Assembly: GCA_045633565.1 (NCBI GenBank)
Contig: JAZQYO010000030.1
Span: 26,075 to 90,074, forward strand
Direction of reading: 5' to 3'
Length of the DNA: 64,000 nucleotides
Source: Clostridia bacterium
GTDB lineage: Bacteria > Bacillota > Clostridia > RUG12999
The notes under the pieces were generated by a model. The model saw only the letters and a program-made list of their open reading frames with translations. It was not told the DNA's origin and did no database searches. Positions within the stretch are counted from its first letter, which is position 1. Each line of letters starts with the position of its first letter. Position numbers and translations under genes: made by a program. Positions 56,101-63,985 of this stretch are shown piece by piece.

Positions 56101-56176
56101 GGGCGCATAGCTCAGCTGGGAGAGCATCTGCCTTACAAGCAGAGGGTCACAGGTTCGAGCCCTGTTGTGCCCACCA
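56101..56176 (+). tRNA. tRNA-Val (TAC)
   Basis: Cloverleaf, anticodon loop CT-TAC-AA, GTTCGAG T-loop, encoded CCA. Confidence 0.95.
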
Positions 56177-56182
56177 TACCAT

Positions 56183-56259
56183 GGCCCGGTAGTTCAGTTG
56201 GTTAGAACGCTAGCCTGTCACGCTAGAGGTCGAGAGTTCGAGTCTCTTCCGGGTCGCCA
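56183..56259 (+). tRNA. tRNA-Asp (GTC)
   Basis: Anticodon arm CTAGC-CTGTCAC-GCTAG, encoded CCA. Confidence 0.95.
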
Positions 56260-56278
56260 CTTTTTAAAAAGTGTGTTC

Positions 56279-56354
56279 GCCTCTGTAGCTCAGTTGGTAG
56301 AGCAGGGGACTGAAAATCCCCGTGTCGGTGGTTCGATTCCGCCCGGAGGCACCA
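56279..56354 (+). tRNA. tRNA-Phe (GAA)
   Basis: Anticodon arm GGGGA-CTGAAAA-TCCCC, encoded CCA. Confidence 0.95.
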
Positions 56355-56360
56355 AAATAT

Positions 56361-56435
56361 GCGGGAGTGACTCAGTGGTAGAGTGTCACCTTGCCAAGGT
56401 GAAAGTCGCGAGTTCGAATCTCGTCTTCCGCTCCA
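56361..56435 (+). tRNA. tRNA-Gly (GCC)
   Basis: Anticodon arm TCACC-TTGCCAA-GGTGA, encoded CCA. Confidence 0.95.
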
Positions 56436-56440
56436 CGAAT

Positions 56441-56470
56441 GAAAAAGACGCACTTAGCTGCGTCTTTTTC
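56441..56470. terminator. Terminator-like hairpin between tRNA-Gly and tRNA-Cys
   Basis: GAAAAAGACGCA-CTTAGC-TGCGTCTTTTTC. Confidence 0.7.
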
Positions 56471-56493
56471 ACTAAAAAACTAAATAATTATAA

Positions 56494-56567
56494 GGCACCA
56501 TAGCCAAGTGGTAAGGCAGAGGTCTGCAACACCTTTACCCCCAGTTCAAGTCTGGGTGGTGCCTCCA
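56494..56567 (+). tRNA. tRNA-Cys (GCA)
   Basis: Acceptor GGCACCA/TGGTGCC, U73 discriminator, anticodon arm GAGGT-CTGCAAC-ACCTT, encoded CCA. Confidence 0.93.
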
Positions 56568-56668: not shown

Positions 56669-57868
56669 ATGATATTATCAGAAAATCTTGACCATGTATA
56701 TTCAGACATCAGGGGCGACATTTACATGCACGCACTTGAACTTGAAAAACAGGGGAATAAAGTGCTCAAATTAAACACAGGAAACCCTGCTGCGTTCGGA
56801 TTTAAAATGCCGGACAGCATTAAAAACAGAATTGTTACCGATGTTGAAAAAGCGCTGGGCTATTGCGATTTAAAGGGTATGCCGGTTGCAAGAGCCGCTA
56901 TCAGGGATTATCACCTGTCAAAAGGACTTAAAAACATCACTGAAGATGATGTTTTTATCGGAAATGGTGTAAGTGAAGTTGCACATATGATTATTGCATC
57001 TCTTGTGGGAAAAGGTGATGAAGTTCTTGTTCCTACTCCGTGCTATTCTCTGTGGACAAACTTTACATACCTTTCAGGCGGTAATGTTCGTTTTTATGAA
57101 TGTGATGAAGCGAACGGATGGCAGCCTGATATTGACAGCATTAAAAAAGCTGTTACCAATAAAACAAAAGCTATTGTTGTTATAAACCCCAACAATCCTA
57201 CAGGTGCTTTATATTCAGAAGAAATTCTGCTGGAAATTATTGATATTGCACGTAAAAACAATCTTGTTCTTATCTCTGACGAGATATACGACAGACTTGT
57301 TATGGATGAAAAACAGCACACATCTACAGCTGCCCTTGCTGATGATGTAACAATAGTTACAATGAATGGTCTTTCCAAATCACACTGTATATGTGGCTTA
57401 AGATGCGGATGGATTTGCCTCAGTGGCAGGGAAGAAGAAAAGAAGGTGCTGAGAGATGCTCTTGTAAGAATTGCATCTGTAAGACTTTGTTCAAATGCTC
57501 TTATGCAGCTGGTAATTCCCGATGCACTTAGCGACCCTGAATACACTAAAGATATGATTGGTACAAACGGCAGAATTTTCAGACAGAGAGAAGCTACAAC
57601 ACAGGAACTTGATAAAATTGACGGAATAACCTATGTGAAAAACTCGGCTGCATTTTACCTCTTCCCCAAAATAGACATTAAAAAGTTCGGTTTTGAAAGC
57701 GACAGAGACTTTGCAAGACAGCTGCTCGATGAAAAACACATATTAATAATACCGGGAAGCGGCTTTAACTGCGTAGATAAAGAACATTTCAGAATTGTAA
57801 TGCTTCCTGAAGAAAATGCATTGAGAGATGCTATAAGAAGTATTGGCGATTTTTTGGCAAAAAGATAA
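56669..57868 (+). CDS. alaA: PLP-dependent class I/II aminotransferase (AlaA/AlaT-like)
   Basis: LKLNTGNPA.FGF, GNGVSE, INPNNPTG, SDEIYD, NGLSKS (PLP Lys), G.RCGW. Confidence 0.85.
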   Translation: MILSENLDHVYSDIRGDIYMHALELEKQGNKVLKLNTGNPAAFGFKMPDSIKNRIVTDVEKALGYCDLKGMPVARAAIRDYHLSKGLKNITEDDVFIGNGVSEVAHMIIASLVGKGDEVLVPTPCYSLWTNFTYLSGGNVRFYECDEANGWQPDIDSIKKAVTNKTKAIVVINPNNPTGALYSEEILLEIIDIARKNNLVLISDEIYDRLVMDEKQHTSTAALADDVTIVTMNGLSKSHCICGLRCGWICLSGREEEKKVLRDALVRIASVRLCSNALMQLVIPDALSDPEYTKDMIGTNGRIFRQREATTQELDKIDGITYVKNSAAFYLFPKIDIKKFGFESDRDFARQLLDEKHILIIPGSGFNCVDKEHFRIVMLPEENALRDAIRSIGDFLAKR

Positions 57869-57937: not shown

Positions 57938-57966
57938 TTGACAAAATTAAACTCACGTGATATAAT
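57938..57966 (+). promoter_or_regulatory. Sigma-A promoter of the T-box leader
   Basis: Perfect TTGACA-N17-TATAAT. Confidence 0.88.
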
Positions 57967-57974
57967 TCATAAAA

Positions 57975-58252
57975 ATAAACGCAATGATACGGAATAGTAT
58001 GTGAGCACCTTTACCCTATAGAGAGATGCCGGTTGGTGTAAGGCATTGGGGAGGGTTTGCAGAACTCACCGTGGAGCGGCTGCTGTGAAATTAAAGTAGG
58101 GGCAGACGGGAACTCCCGTTACAGAGTTAAGATGTGTTGGCATCTAAAGTGCATCCGATAAGGGTGAAAAAGAGTGGTACCGCGGAAAGTTAAATTTGTT
58201 TTTTAACGTTTTCGTCTCTTTGAATCGACAAGGAGACGGAAGCGTGTTTTTG
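57975..58252 (+). ncRNA. T-box riboswitch, Leu-specific (specifier CUC)
   Basis: Stem I with AGAGA/GGTG distal motifs, specifier loop GAA-CTC-A (58064-58066), AGTA in stem II, CCGTTA, T-box AGAGTGGTACCGCG (58171-58184; UGGU fits tRNA-Leu A73), terminator ACGTTTTCGTCTC...GAGACGGAAGCGT-GTTTTT. Confidence 0.9.
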
Positions 58253-58298: not shown

Positions 58299-59687
58299 AT
58301 GAGAAAAATCAATATCACAGACATCACACTCAAAAAGCTCTCGCAGGACAGAGAGGTTTCACTTTTGTTCCGTGAGAAAACTGCAATAGCTGCGTGTGCA
58401 GATTCACTTGGCGTTGATGCCATTGAACTTGCACCTGTAAAAAACGTTCGTGAAGATACTATTATTTATAAAACAATAGCTCAGAACACTCTCAGCAGAA
58501 AGGTTGTAATTCCGGCAGGATTTACTGCTGAAGAAGTGGACGCAGCGTGGGAATGCGTAAAGGATGCAAAATATCCCCGTCTGCAGATTGAGCTTCCGGT
58601 TTCAACTGTTCAGATGGAATATATCTATCATGTAAAAGCTGATAAAATGGCAGTGAAAATAGCCCAGCTTACAGCTCATGCAAAAAAACTTTGCGGTGAC
58701 ATAGAATTTGCGGCGCTTGATGCAACAAGGGCGGATGAGGAATTTTTAATTCAGGCTGCAAAAGAGGCAGAAGCAAATGGTGCAGGAATTATCACAATTT
58801 GCGATGATGCAGGAGTATCGCTTCCGGAAGAAATTGCACAGCTTGTAAAGAAAATCAAAGCGGCAGTAAAAATTCCTGTATATGTTCAGGTGTCTGACCG
58901 TATTGGTATGGCGGTTGCAGCGGCGGTAGCGGCAATCGGTGCAGGCGCAGACGGAATTAAGTGTGCAATGGCATCGGGAGATGCACTGTCTATGGGAGAA
59001 TTTTCAGATGCGATAAGTGCGCGCAGTGAAGCAATCGGCGCTGAAACCGGACTTAAAAATACCAAAATTCATGCAAGTATTGACGAAATGCTTGAAAGCA
59101 TAAATCATCAGGCTTATGAAACTGAAGAAAAAGTAAGTGAAAAGAAAAAAATCCTGCTTGACAGCGACAGCACAATTTCGCAGGTAGCTCAGGCGGCACA
59201 GGTTCTCGGTTACGACCTGTCTGATGGGGACTGTGGCAATGTTCACAAAGCACTGATGCAGGTTTGTGAGAAAAAGGCGTCAGTTGGGGCAAAGGAATTT
59301 GAGGCACTCATTGCAAGCTCTGCTATGCAGGCGCCCTCTACATATCATCTTGAAAGCTATAGCACAAACTGCGGTAACCTCACAAGCTCAATGTCACAGG
59401 TTACACTCAGAAATGGAGATGAAATTCTCTGTGGTGTAAGCACAGGCGACGGTCCTATTGACTCTGCATTCCGTGCAATTGAACAATGCATTGGTTATCA
59501 CTATGAGCTGGATGATTTTCAGGTTCAGGCTGTAACTGAGGGTAAAGAAGCTCTCGGTTCTGCGCTTGTAAGACTTCGTAACAATGGCAAGCTTTATTCA
59601 GGAAACGGTATTTCAACCGACATTGTTGCGGCAAGTATCAGAGCATATATTAACGCACTGAACAAGATTGTATTTGAGGAGGAATAA
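58299..59687 (+). CDS. LeuA (2-isopropylmalate synthase)-like protein with a degenerate catalytic barrel and an intact C-terminal regulatory domain
   Basis: Collinear with LeuA (DATRAD, DDAG..LP, LGYDLS, GDGPIDSAFRAI, STDIVAASIRAYINALN) but DTTLRDGEQ is DITLKKLSQ, HxH is QVS, and the GERAGN motif is absent. Confidence 0.85.
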   Translation: MRKINITDITLKKLSQDREVSLLFREKTAIAACADSLGVDAIELAPVKNVREDTIIYKTIAQNTLSRKVVIPAGFTAEEVDAAWECVKDAKYPRLQIELPVSTVQMEYIYHVKADKMAVKIAQLTAHAKKLCGDIEFAALDATRADEEFLIQAAKEAEANGAGIITICDDAGVSLPEEIAQLVKKIKAAVKIPVYVQVSDRIGMAVAAAVAAIGAGADGIKCAMASGDALSMGEFSDAISARSEAIGAETGLKNTKIHASIDEMLESINHQAYETEEKVSEKKKILLDSDSTISQVAQAAQVLGYDLSDGDCGNVHKALMQVCEKKASVGAKEFEALIASSAMQAPSTYHLESYSTNCGNLTSSMSQVTLRNGDEILCGVSTGDGPIDSAFRAIEQCIGYHYELDDFQVQAVTEGKEALGSALVRLRNNGKLYSGNGISTDIVAASIRAYINALNKIVFEEE

Positions 59688-59688
59688 G

Positions 59689-62145
59689 ATGAAACTCGCA
59701 TTTTCAACTAAAAATGTAAATCGTGCATCTTTCCTCGATACCTGCCGTTATGCTTATGATTACGGATTTTCGGGATTTGAAATATATGATGCGGTTAAAG
59801 AAAGAAAGTCACATTATGACAGTATTCTCCGCAGTGACAGAGTGTCTGATGCAAAAAGAAAGCTTTTAAACCGCGGACTTTCTGTGTCTGCACTGACATA
59901 TCCTTGTTCGCTGGAAAGTGATGAGGCAACTTCAGAATCAATTGTGAAGTATGTGGATATGGCGGCAGGTGCGGCAATAGAACGTGTTATTGTCCGTGTT
60001 GAAAAGGAAACTGAAAACACAGTCCTTGCCCAAAAGCTCGGGGAAGCGATTAAAAGGGCAGAACAGGCAGATGTCCAGATTTTGATTGAAACGGTTGGGT
60101 ATCTTTCCAAAACTGAAAAGGTTATTGATATAATAAACTTTTTCTCTTCTGCGGCAGTTGGCGCTTCCTGGAATATCAGGGCGACATATTTTGATGCAGG
60201 AGAAAGTGGTGAAACAACCATTAAAAACTTAGGGGCATATATTAAATATGTGCGCCTGGGCGACATGGCAGACGGGAAAACGGTTCTTATTGGTGAAGGA
60301 GAACTTCCGGTAGATAAAATTGTAAATGCGCTTTCTTCACTGAACTACGATGGCTTCGTATGCGTAGCGTGGAATGAGGAAATTAACGATGCGGACATTG
60401 TTCTGACACATTTTGCAAACTATATCGCATCGCTGAGCAGGGACAAAAAGGAATATGACAAAGCATACTACAACAGAGCCAAAACAGGTACGTTTGTATG
60501 GAAAAAATACGATATTGTTGATGCTACATTCTCGGATGTTCTTGACACAATGGTGGAAAAATATCCTGACCAGTATGCTTTCAAATACACAACGCTTGAT
60601 TACACAAGAACTTATAAAGAGTTCCGCAGAGATGTTGATGAATGTGCAGCTGCACTCATTTCTCTCGGTGTAAAAGCAGGGGACCATGTTGCTGTCTGGG
60701 CAACAAATGTTCCGGCTTGGTTTATTACCTTTTGGGCAACAACCAAAATCGGGGCAGTTCTTGTAACAGTAAATACGGCTTATAAAATTCACGAAATTGA
60801 ATATCTTTTAAAACAGTCGGACACTCATACTCTTGTTATGATTGAGGATTGCAAGGACATTAACTACCGTGAAATTATTCGGGAGCTTTGCCCCGAGCTT
60901 GAAAATCTGCAGCCGGGAGATGCGTTATATACAAAAAATCTGCCATTTTTGCGCAATGTTATAACAGTAGGGTTTTCCATGCCCGGCTGTCTGACATGGG
61001 AGCAGATGCTTTCCCGTGCAAAAATGGTTCCGCATGAAGAGGTAAGAAGACGAGCATCACTCGTTAAGCCTGACGATGTATGTAATATGCAGTATACATC
61101 AGGCACAACAGGTTTCCCCAAAGGGGTTATGCTTACACACAGAAATATTGTAAATAACGGCAAAACCATCGGTGACAGAATGGATTTATCCACTGCTGAC
61201 CGTATGATGATTCAGGTGCCAATGTTCCACTGCTTCGGCATGGTACTTTCCATGACATCCATGATGACTCACGGTGGTACACTTTCGCCAATGCCATATT
61301 TCTCGCCAAAATCATCTCTGGCGTGCATCAACGAAGAACGCATAACCTGTTTCAACGGCGTTCCTACAATGTTTATTGCACTCTTCAACCATGCTGATTT
61401 TGCCAAAACCGATTTTTCATATATGCGCACCGGAATTATGGCGGGTGCAAACTGCCCGGCAGACCTTATGCGACGTGCAGCCGATGAAATGAATATGAAG
61501 GAAATCATTTCGGTTTACGGTCAGACAGAGGCGTCGCCTGGTTGTACAATGGGCGAGGTTAATGAAGATATTGACCACCGTGTTGAAACTGTCGGAAGTG
61601 CGTTCCCGGGAGTTGAATGTAAAATTATTGACCCCGAAACAGGGGAAGAACTCCCCGATGGCGAAAGCGGAGAGTTTGTTGCACGTGGATTTAACATCAT
61701 GAAAGGTTATTATAAAATGCCTGAAGCTACCGCGCAGACAATTGATGCTGACGGTTGGCTCCACTCAGGGGATATCTGTTGCCGTACCCCGGACGGATAC
61801 TATAAGGTAACGGGTCGTCTTAAGGATATGATTATCCCGGGCGGTGAGAACCTTTATCCTCGTGAGATTGAAGAATTTTATCTCACACACCCCAAAGTTC
61901 GTGACGTGCAGGTTGTAGGCGTTCCGGACGAAAGATACGGAGAAGAATGTTGCGCATGGATTATTCTTCATAAGGGGGAAGAATCGGACGAAAATGAAAT
62001 GCGTGAATTCGGTAATTCGGCAATTGCCCGTCATAAAGTTCCGAGATATTTTGTTTTCGTAAAAGAATTCCCGATGAATGCAGCGGGGAAAATTTTAAAA
62101 TACAAAATGCGTGAAGAATCAGCGCAGATGCTGGGGCTTAAATGA
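59689..62145 (+). CDS. Acyl-CoA synthetase (AMP-binding, fatty acyl-CoA ligase/YngI-like) fused to an N-terminal xylose-isomerase-like TIM barrel
   Basis: ATG at 59689 after GAGGAGG; N-terminal ~250 aa of the sugar-phosphate isomerase/epimerase (AP_endonuc_2) type; ANL motifs QYTSGTTGFPKG, YGQTE, GWLHSGD, GRLKD, terminal GKILK lysine. Confidence 0.9.
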   Translation: MKLAFSTKNVNRASFLDTCRYAYDYGFSGFEIYDAVKERKSHYDSILRSDRVSDAKRKLLNRGLSVSALTYPCSLESDEATSESIVKYVDMAAGAAIERVIVRVEKETENTVLAQKLGEAIKRAEQADVQILIETVGYLSKTEKVIDIINFFSSAAVGASWNIRATYFDAGESGETTIKNLGAYIKYVRLGDMADGKTVLIGEGELPVDKIVNALSSLNYDGFVCVAWNEEINDADIVLTHFANYIASLSRDKKEYDKAYYNRAKTGTFVWKKYDIVDATFSDVLDTMVEKYPDQYAFKYTTLDYTRTYKEFRRDVDECAAALISLGVKAGDHVAVWATNVPAWFITFWATTKIGAVLVTVNTAYKIHEIEYLLKQSDTHTLVMIEDCKDINYREIIRELCPELENLQPGDALYTKNLPFLRNVITVGFSMPGCLTWEQMLSRAKMVPHEEVRRRASLVKPDDVCNMQYTSGTTGFPKGVMLTHRNIVNNGKTIGDRMDLSTADRMMIQVPMFHCFGMVLSMTSMMTHGGTLSPMPYFSPKSSLACINEERITCFNGVPTMFIALFNHADFAKTDFSYMRTGIMAGANCPADLMRRAADEMNMKEIISVYGQTEASPGCTMGEVNEDIDHRVETVGSAFPGVECKIIDPETGEELPDGESGEFVARGFNIMKGYYKMPEATAQTIDADGWLHSGDICCRTPDGYYKVTGRLKDMIIPGGENLYPREIEEFYLTHPKVRDVQVVGVPDERYGEECCAWIILHKGEESDENEMREFGNSAIARHKVPRYFVFVKEFPMNAAGKILKYKMREESAQMLGLK

Positions 62146-63317: not shown

Positions 63318-63605
63318 ATGATAAGCAACTGGTTTGTCGTAGCAATGGGTCTTGGCACAGTATTTGTAGGACTCATCTGTATTATTTTTATTTCAATGTT
63401 AATGAGCTTCATCTGCAGAGGCCTTGTTAAAAACAAGCCTGAGGAAAAGGCAGCGCCGAAAGCCCCGGTAGCGAAAGTATCCGCAGCGGCACCGGCAGAA
63501 ATCGCAAACAAACAGGAGTTTGTTGCGGCTGTTTCTGCGGCGATTGCTGAATTTTCAGGATGCAGCGCAGAAGCTATCAGAATTCACTCAATCAAAAAAG
63601 TTTAA
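63318..63605 (+). CDS. Na+-translocating decarboxylase gamma/delta subunit (OadG family)
   Basis: MGLGTVFVGLICII TM helix, Ala/Pro linker, VAAVSAAIAE...IHSIKKV. Confidence 0.88.
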   Translation: MISNWFVVAMGLGTVFVGLICIIFISMLMSFICRGLVKNKPEEKAAPKAPVAKVSAAAPAEIANKQEFVAAVSAAIAEFSGCSAEAIRIHSIKKV

Positions 63606-63631
63606 GTTAAAAACAGAAAGGAACAATTATT

Positions 63632-63985
63632 ATGAAAACATATCGTGTAAACGTTAACGGAACAAACTATGAAATCCAGGTTGAAGAAATTTCAGCATCA
63701 GAAGCTAAAAGTGCTCCTGCTCAGGTACCCGCTCAGGCACCTGCGGCAGCTCCTGTGGCAGCTCCGGCCGGCGGTGAAGCAGTAAACAGCCCTATGCCCG
63801 GCACAATACTTTCAGTTAATGTTAAAGCAGGGGACGCTGTTAAAGCAGGCGACGTACTTATGATTCTTGAAGCTATGAAAATGGAAAACGAAATTTGTGC
63901 TCCTTGTGATGGCACAGTTGCGTCAGTTTCTGTAAATCAGGGCGCAACAGTTGAAACAGGCACACCTCTCTGCACAATTGCTTAA
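63632..63985 (+). CDS. Biotin carboxyl carrier protein of a Na+-translocating decarboxylase (MmdC/GcdC-like)
   Basis: [10 protein letters not shown], Ala/Pro linker, [16 protein letters not shown] biotinylation motif; an RBS (GGAGG) for a following gene lies at the window edge. Confidence 0.93.

Follow-up and report, generated by a model that had tools for sequence, protein, structure and literature searches.

A xylose-isomerase-like TIM barrel lacking the canonical metal-site tetrad is fused to an acyl-CoA ligase under leucine T-box control in gut Clostridia

That anaerobes of the rumen and gut make leucine from isovalerate has been known since the 1960s. Literature searches for the step that activates isovalerate in these organisms, or for its control, found no assigned gene. 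HisZ, which works with ATP phosphoribosyltransferase, provides an example of a dead enzyme paralogue that serves as a regulatory part. The xylose-isomerase-like TIM barrels of the AP_endonuc_2 family include the 3-dehydroshikimate dehydratase AsbF (PDB 3DX5), the isomerase Art22 (8Z1I), UlaE (3CQJ) and the ketose 3-epimerases (2HK0, 3VNI). In the ketose 3-epimerases, Mn2+ is held by a Glu/Asp/His/Glu tetrad, the two glutamates of which are the catalytic bases (PMC7008614). Here we describe a barrel of this fold that differs from these enzymes in the residues at its metal site, in being fused to an acyl-CoA ligase and in being controlled by a leucine T-box rather than belonging to a sugar regulon. 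Sister barrel–ligase fusions of 820-870 amino acids, likewise uncharacterised, are found in Clostridia; literature searches for such a fusion and for Art22 found nothing relevant.

The locus lies in a 64,000-nucleotide stretch of contig JAZQYO010000030.1 from a Clostridia bacterium (the window; positions given are those of this stretch and the features described are on the + strand). The operon begins with a sigma-70-type promoter (TTGACA-17-TATAAT, 57938-57966, a 12/12 match to the consensus) followed by a T-box leader (57975-58222) with the leucine specifier GAA-CUC-A and a terminator hairpin at 58206-58245; the leader scores 136.3 bits with Rfam RF00230, for which the gathering score is 93. 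Under this control the ligase is induced by starvation for leucine. The CTC specifier is invariant in nine aligned leaders, and a regular-expression search, giving an approximate count only, recovers a T-box in 58 of 71 loci and reads CTC in 48. The leader is followed by a gene (58299-59687) encoding a LeuA-like protein with HMGL-like and LeuA_dimer Pfam domains, which an alignment of 11 orthologues shows to lack the RDGEQ and HxH motifs; the original prediction had already placed a pseudo-LeuA beside the barrel–ligase gene, and this is what is seen. The pseudo-LeuA gene is directly upstream in all 73 clade loci with sufficient flank, mostly 5-15 nt away, and in the window the start codon of the barrel–ligase ORF is 1 nt past its stop.

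The barrel–ligase ORF itself (818 amino acids, 59689-62145) has an ATG start 6-7 nt downstream of a GAGGAGG ribosome-binding site. Residues 258-818 (60460-62145) comprise a conserved N-terminal extension (TGxxVWKK...IDxTF) and an ANL acyl-CoA ligase, assigned by Pfam, NF009233 and the sequence: AMP-binding (PF00501) spans residues 288-675 (320.5 bits) and AMP-binding_C (PF13193) residues 726-801 (61.9 bits), and the motifs YTSGTTGFPKG, YGQTE, GWLHSGD, GRLKD and AGKILK are intact. The protein thus has the two Pfam domains together with the core motifs expected of an ANL acyl-CoA ligase (P-loop, YGxTE, hinge and catalytic lysine), and the ligase is predicted, as it had been originally, to be an intact enzyme. 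The closest model, NF009233 (PRK12583, a fatty acid CoA ligase family), aligns across the whole ligase part (residues 276-816, 673 bits), the adenylation and hinge motifs of which are intact, but the score is below the 832-bit cut-off, so the protein is not a member by that threshold, and it has two further parts, its N-terminal barrel and its conserved TGxxVWKK extension. Comparison of the ligase part with the PDB found no close characterised relative, the closest entries (8WEU, 8WEV) covering the C-terminal 350 residues only. Barrel and ligase are joined by a flexible linker (residues 251-257, 60439-60459) with pLDDT below 50 in both AlphaFold2 models; the full-length model (pTM 0.60) has a disordered linker and no confident packing of the barrel against the ligase.

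The N-terminal domain (residues 1-250, 59689-60438) is a genuine AP_endonuc_2 TIM barrel by Pfam, AlphaFold2 and structure alignment. Residues 20-230 match PF01261 with 52.5 bits against a cut-off of 31.1, and an AlphaFold2 model built from a 49-sequence alignment is an eight-stranded (β/α)8 barrel (mean pLDDT 93.5, pTM 0.89). The comparison with family HMMs and structures that had been proposed as a check was made using Foldseek and VIA-align, and the closest structures are Art22 (8z1i; Z 27.0, 238 aligned residues, 2.6 Å), AsbF (3dx5; Z 26.0), UlaE (3cqj; Z 25.4) and the ketose 3-epimerases (Z 23-24). Superposition on the first three extends over 238-245 residues, and across the whole set the fold is shared over ~238 residues at 2.5-3.0 Å. 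The single-domain sequence alone gives marginal matches to the PDB (E 0.03-0.66) and a profile is required to reach solved members with confidence (E 3e-19 for AsbF, 4e-17 for Art22).

The metal site tells a different story from the fold. Ligands were mapped from residue alignments (with MJ1311; with AsbF, Art22 and MJ1311 using the profile; and with 14 sister fusions) together with strand positions in the model, in which strands 130-134, 157-162, 185-190 and 223-226 each carry one of the four tetrad positions at the C-terminal end. The sole canonical ligand retained is E134 in the LIET motif (60088-60090), which occupies the same strand position as the first ligand Glu of AsbF, Art22, UlaE and the ketose 3-epimerases and is Glu in 80 of 80 clade loci. 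The Asp is replaced by N162, the His by R189 and the second catalytic and metal-binding Glu by A227, whilst the neighbouring His and Lys that contact substrate in the solved enzymes have become R164 and G191. The motifs from which the loss of the ligands was originally predicted, WNIRA (residues 161-165), YVRLGD (187-192) and CVAW (225-228), indeed align opposite the family motifs WD..H, H.H.KD and s.E. Thus N162-I-R164 (60172-60180) stands in place of the family D-x-H (WD.HH in sister fusions), R189-L-G191-D192 (60253-60264) in place of H-x-K-D, and A227 (60367-60369) where sister fusions have sLEW. The E-D-H-E tetrad at the strand ends, present in the sister fusions and in stand-alone relatives, is absent from the window's barrel, and as judged from these alignments the substitution of three of its residues is far beyond chance.

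The domain had been called degenerate, a term that holds for the loss of the tetrad but is too weak for what has replaced it. Across 80 species loci, collected by a single-protein scan reaching the window's clade only, N162, R164, G191 and D192 are found in 80/80 and R189 in 79/80, and residue 227 is Ala in 76, Ser in three and Leu in one. Much the same is true of the representatives of 120 clusters at 90% identity (N162 and R164 120/120, R189 119/120, A227 116/120), and we reject the idea that the barrel is simply decaying, given the fixation of the replacements in both sets. Such (near-)invariance points to a remodelled pocket under selection, and with its fold kept, its catalytic residues lost and the replacements apparently under purifying selection, the barrel would be classed as a pseudoenzyme domain in the working sense of that term. 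Relative to the ligase it diverges 3.5 times faster within the window's clade, against 2.0 times in lineages with intact barrels, and mean p-distances are 0.26 (barrel) and 0.07 (ligase); constraint on the barrel, as read from these alignments, is relaxed but real.

The sister fusions share the architecture of the window's protein and have ligase domains 64-71% identical to it, but their barrels are merely 25-37% identical and keep WD.HH, H.KD and LEW, and half of them have no LeuA-like partner. The original prediction had tied the fusion to the pseudo-LeuA, and this does not hold: a LeuA-like gene is absent nearby in 10 of 20 related loci, all ten with E-D-H-E barrels, and five of the genomes concerned (92-100% complete) contain no close copy of the pseudo-LeuA anywhere. 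Two of the ten LeuA-less loci examined have the leucine CUC T-box, as in the window. In one genome (G033) ligase and barrel are separate adjacent genes, in that order and 10 nt apart, the barrel having E-D-H-E, and another (G039) has an Aminotran_4–barrel–other-ANL arrangement, which suggests that barrel and ligase are functionally linked whatever the gene order. LeuA-less fusions are mostly monocistronic or beside unrelated genes (dap genes, an AraC regulator, cobalamin adenosyltransferase), and with Amidohydro_2 and a class IV aminotransferase the only recurring neighbours, no ancestral barrel reaction could be deduced from gene context.

In a tree of the ligase domain alone, the ligand-less clade forms one branch (SH-aLRT 100, stem length 0.57) nested in the dead-LeuA clade (support 97), which is itself nested in fusions with intact barrels. 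The tree indicates that the ligands were lost a single time, along the stem leading to the window's clade of gut bacteria and after the gain of the dead LeuA; the state has been fixed since. The barrel–ligase fusion arose earlier, and is more widespread, than the partnership with the dead LeuA. At four loci a dead LeuA lies alongside a barrel that is still E-D-H-E, so a dead barrel is no prerequisite for the partnership, nor is ligand loss one for docking. Among 64 fully covered representatives at 50% identity, 27 deviate from E-D-H-E (ENHD, ENHE and KDHE, for example). Separately, P0124, P0125 and P0169 are more divergent, partly degenerate representatives.

Further clues come from the genome background. 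IlvD and a true LeuA were not found in the source genome, which encodes three T-box-controlled acid-CoA ligases (Leu, Val and Ile), all of which carry an accessory domain at the N-terminus. A valine (GUA) T-box precedes genes for an HTH-cupin-ligase, IlvE, a P-loop protein and VOR alpha/beta/gamma, and an isoleucine (AUC) T-box precedes a second HTH-cupin-ligase. These proteins share the logic of the window's operon, a single-amino-acid T-box controlling a ligase with a non-catalytic-looking N-terminal head, but belong to another ANL subfamily (25% identical), have an XRE HTH and cupin as the head and lack a LeuA-like partner. The features looked for in leucine salvage by reductive carboxylation are all present (leucine-responsive control, no de novo pathway, VOR and a branched-chain aminotransferase), and the background is compatible with salvage of isovalerate to leucine; isovalerate is the ligase substrate that we infer.

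We think it probable, from comparison of sequences, that in the window's clade the barrel has no catalytic role and serves as an accessory head on an isovalerate-CoA ligase under leucine control, with an arginine-lined site used in regulation or docking. Such a barrel would no longer be capable of the metal-assisted two-base proton-transfer chemistry of the family, its former metal site being predicted to be lined by two arginines, R164 and R189, and by N162. That it is still an enzyme, the arginines standing in for the divalent cation and polarising a carbonyl or carboxylate to carry out on a leucine-pathway acid either a new reaction or the ancestral one in metal-independent form, would fit the charge balance (Asp, Glu, Lys and M2+ lost, two Arg gained), the fixation of the replacements as strongly as is usual for catalytic residues and the retention of one general base of the two, E134. 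E31, E172, D192 and E203 are also kept, all five acidic residues being invariant in the window's clade, and another metal or catalytic arrangement involving them is possible. We nonetheless consider continued catalysis improbable, as the second general base (Glu227) has become Ala, Ser or Leu, the barrel outpaces the ligase by more than it does in intact lineages and, to our knowledge, no step in isovalerate-to-leucine salvage requires chemistry of this type.

It also seems quite unlikely that the barrel is a mere structural or oligomerisation scaffold, or a solubility or stability head, with an unused pocket whose fixed residues stabilise a metal-free fold. The piecemeal loss of ligands elsewhere in the family suggests that the site is often dispensable, and the linker is flexible in the full-length model, but the conservation of N162 and R164 (invariant) and of R189 (nearly so) over 80 species goes beyond what a stable fold normally needs, and barrel and ligase have stayed together, fused or as a split pair of genes, over a wide phylogenetic distance. 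The original prediction was that the barrel may be a docking site for the pseudo-LeuA, or else an allosteric pocket for a metabolite, so that one active ligase would be flanked by two dead barrels. The constant presence of the pseudo-LeuA upstream and the nesting of the ligand-less clade within the LeuA-partnered one favour docking, as does a weak covariation of rates: with the ligase controlled for, barrel and pseudo-LeuA distances give a partial r of 0.46-0.56 (0.20 for ligase against LeuA barrel), from non-independent pairs and at a level that could arise if both of these fast-evolving domains had been relaxed together. Docking as the reason for the barrel is doubtful in our view, however, as the fusion is both older and more frequent than the partnership, and the partner is found beside intact barrels too.

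In this reading the ligand-less state is derived: an ancestral barrel–ligase fusion with an intact site recruited the dead LeuA partner once, and later, on the single long branch to the window's clade, the site was rebuilt and then frozen. As a non-catalytic head the barrel could now bind an anionic metabolite in a metal-free, arginine-lined pocket, make contact with the dead LeuA, or do both, and would parallel the HTH-cupin heads of the valine- and isoleucine-controlled ligases. It may resemble HisZ in keeping an enzyme fold without its catalytic residues, under purifying selection and alongside a working enzyme from its own pathway, but the dead domain is here fused in cis and its regulatory role is a candidate one. 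A more ambitious version, which we regard as unlikely, is that two unrelated TIM barrels (AP_endonuc_2 and LeuA) were converted successively into sensor or adaptor modules of one isovalerate-CoA ligase, the arginine-lined site binding a pathway anion (2-oxoisocaproate, isovalerate or the phosphate of an acyl-CoA) and the dead LeuA reading leucine; if true, the first enzyme of the salvage route would carry a two-input allosteric head.

Annotation of the barrel domain as 'sugar phosphate isomerase/epimerase' is misleading, and the barrel–ligase is the best candidate for the activation of isovalerate in rumen and gut anaerobes. The order of steps can guide the choice of constructs (intact-barrel clade against rebuilt-barrel clade, each with and without the partner). 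Taken together, the family would offer a stepwise example of the passage from enzyme domain to non-catalytic module: the barrel is intact at first, a dead-LeuA partner joins it, and its pocket is finally rebuilt in metal-free form.

The 818-residue fusion is encoded by an ORF at 59689-62145 (+). A GAGGAGG ribosome-binding site stands ahead of its ATG, which is separated by 1 nt from the stop codon of the upstream LeuA-like gene (pseudo-LeuA, 58299-59687 (+)). Pfam models place AP_endonuc_2 at residues 20-230 (52.5 bits, cut-off 31.1), AMP-binding at residues 288-675 (320 bits) and AMP-binding_C at residues 726-801. The adenylation motifs of the ligase part are intact; its closest NCBIfam model, NF009233 (PRK12583), scores 673 bits, below that model's cut-off of 832 bits. 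In a full-length model (pTM 0.60) linker residues 251-257 are disordered, so that no fixed barrel-ligase interface is apparent. Literature searches found no paper on this barrel-ligase fusion.

Residues 1-265, modelled from a 49-sequence alignment (mean pLDDT 93.5, pTM 0.89), form eight β/α units extending to residue 250. Structure searches with this predicted model confirmed the xylose-isomerase-like fold proposed in the original prediction, with matches to Art22 (8z1i; Z 27.0, 238 aligned residues, 2.6 Å), AsbF (3dx5; Z 26.0, 239 residues, 2.6 Å), UlaE (3cqj; Z 25.4, 245 residues, 2.9 Å) and ketose 3-epimerases (Z 23-24). A sequence-profile search with the barrel family also recovered AsbF (3e-19) and Art22 (4e-17).

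In ketose 3-epimerases Mn2+ is held by Glu150, Asp183, His209 and Glu244, with both glutamates acting as catalytic bases (PMC7008614). This Glu-Asp-His-Glu tetrad (E-D-H-E) was mapped onto the barrel by alignment to MJ1311, to AsbF, Art22 and MJ1311 with a profile, and to 14 sister fusions. The first Glu is kept (E134) but the Asp is replaced by N162, the His by R189 and the second Glu, both ligand and base, by A227; the His that follows the family Asp is R164 and the Lys of H.KD is G191. All four tetrad positions fall at C-terminal ends of strands in the predicted model, and the codon positions of the site residues were checked against the window. Since alignments, strand-end positions and codon check agree, three of the four metal ligands are indeed substituted, as had been proposed. 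Lacking the second base at position 227 and the Asp and His ligands, the barrel is very unlikely to carry out canonical chemistry. It belongs to AP_endonuc_2 by fold and HMM yet is without the catalytic signature of that family, and would best be called a pseudoenzyme-like variant. R164 and R189 could substitute for the charge of the lost cation and could bind a carboxylate or phosphate.

Conservation was assessed in 120 cluster representatives (90% identity) and in 80 species loci from ruminant-hindgut MAGs labelled Oscillospiraceae, Acutalibacteraceae and Ructibacterium. N162, R164, G191 and D192 are invariant in both sets, whilst E134 (119/120 clusters, 80/80 loci), R189 (119/120, 79/80) and A227 (116/120, 76/80) are nearly so. 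With its replacement residues fixed or nearly so, the rebuilt site is not decaying.

Of 41 related genomes, 30 encode a barrel-ligase protein (open frames of 820-870 aa), and these span many families of the class. Twenty fetched loci were sorted into three groups by partner and barrel site. The window's clade (L011-L016 plus the window) has a LeuA-like gene upstream and E-N-R-A in the barrel; a second group (L017, L019, L021 and L024) has the LeuA-like gene and intact E-D-H-E; the other ten loci have intact E-D-H-E and no LeuA-like gene upstream, and a close pseudo-LeuA is absent genome-wide from five genomes of this third group (92-100% complete). The fusion is therefore independent of pseudo-LeuA, a result that the original prediction had named as counting against it; its observation of a barrel with substituted metal ligands is confirmed, its interpretation partly supported.

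In a tree of the ligase domain only, rooted on a split ligase, the ligand-less fusions form a single branch (SH-aLRT 100, stem length 0.57) nested in the LeuA-partnered clade (support 97), itself nested in intact partner-less fusions. Judged from these sequences, ligand loss is a derived, single event, restricted to one clade and since fixed, and we infer that fusion came before partner and partner before the rebuilt site. Within one genus (g6), two genomes, G010 and G015, differ: one fusion is intact and partner-less, the other ligand-less with pseudo-LeuA. Together with the long stem, this mismatch suggests that a fusion was replaced by transfer and that the protein as a whole shifted in function. 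Genome G033 has an order-reversed split (L053:5030-7481 (-)), with a ligase gene (553 aa, 53% identical) followed, after a 10 nt gap containing GGAGG, by a separate, intact (E-D-H-E) barrel gene, and in G039 an intact barrel has a class IV aminotransferase on one side and a different ANL enzyme on the other. Both arrangements point to a functional link between barrel and ligase, whatever the gene order.

The barrel evolves faster than the ligase, most markedly in the window's clade (3.5x), then in the second group (2.9x) and least in the third (2.0x). Mean p-distances within the window's clade are 0.26 (barrel), 0.07 (ligase), 0.33 (LeuA-like barrel) and 0.145 (LeuA regulatory domain). Partial ligand loss is also seen in other lineages of the barrel family: among 64 representatives at 50% identity with full coverage, 27 deviate from E-D-H-E, so the site is evidently fairly often dispensable.

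None of the LeuA-like partners has RDGEQ or HxH, and pseudo-LeuA lies directly upstream in all 73 clade loci with sufficient flank. With the ligase controlled for, barrel and pseudo-LeuA distances give a partial r of 0.46-0.56 (ligase versus LeuA barrel, 0.20), the pairs being non-independent; this covariation hints weakly that the barrel docks to pseudo-LeuA. An Amidohydro_2 gene recurs in or beside the operon (L021:5563-6426 (-); L024:7948-8745 (+); upstream of pseudo-LeuA in L074); the family includes reversible decarboxylases. In L021 the fusion is followed by a class IV aminotransferase.

The fusion operon is preceded by a perfect promoter and a T-box with specifier CUC (Leu). CTC is invariant across nine aligned leaders, two of which precede fusions without a LeuA partner. 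Neither IlvD nor genuine LeuA was found in the window's genome (97.5% complete). Elsewhere in that genome (contig C1), an operon at L046:2728-9642 (-) opens with a Val (GUA) T-box and encodes a 766-aa HTH+Cupin_2+AMP-binding ligase, then IlvE, a CbiA/ParA-like P-loop protein and the alpha, beta and gamma subunits of VOR (2-oxoacid:ferredoxin oxidoreductase); a second, at L047:398-3034 (-), has an Ile (AUC) T-box before a paralogous HTH-cupin-ligase (754 aa, 61% identical to the Val one). There are thus three amino-acid-specific switches, each before an acid-activating enzyme, plus a carboxylating oxidoreductase and a transaminase. Such a gene set is consistent with a salvage route that turns isobutyrate, 2-methylbutyrate and isovalerate, the presumed substrates of the ligases, into Val, Ile and Leu. 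Mainly because all three T-box-controlled ligases bear a sensor-like N-terminal head, the barrel may be read, by parallel with the HTH-cupin heads, as an accessory module of its ligase.

In some clade loci (L069 and L076), a different leader stands in place of the Leu T-box, some 330 nt ahead of the pseudo-LeuA start (at about 2290-2610). It comprises a promoter, a hydrophobic, Ile/Leu-rich ORF of 33-36 codons (..ILLINAIIIL..) and a GC hairpin with a T-tract. Such a leader may act as a leader-peptide attenuator, or the ORF may encode a small membrane peptide. In the window, five tRNA genes (56101-56564 (+)) run between hsp33 and a class I aminotransferase gene (56669-57868); the latter is served by a promoter and terminator of its own and lies outside the T-box operon. 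Downstream, a sodium-pumping decarboxylase-type cluster (63318-63985 (+) and beyond, at G000:C30:91326-92117 in the same genome) encodes OAD-gamma, a biotin carrier and an HMGL-like carboxyltransferase (468 aa), the last of which explains the genome's only other HMGL-like match.

The new findings here are that loss of the metal ligands is clade-specific, single and fixed, and that the fusion is not tied to pseudo-LeuA.
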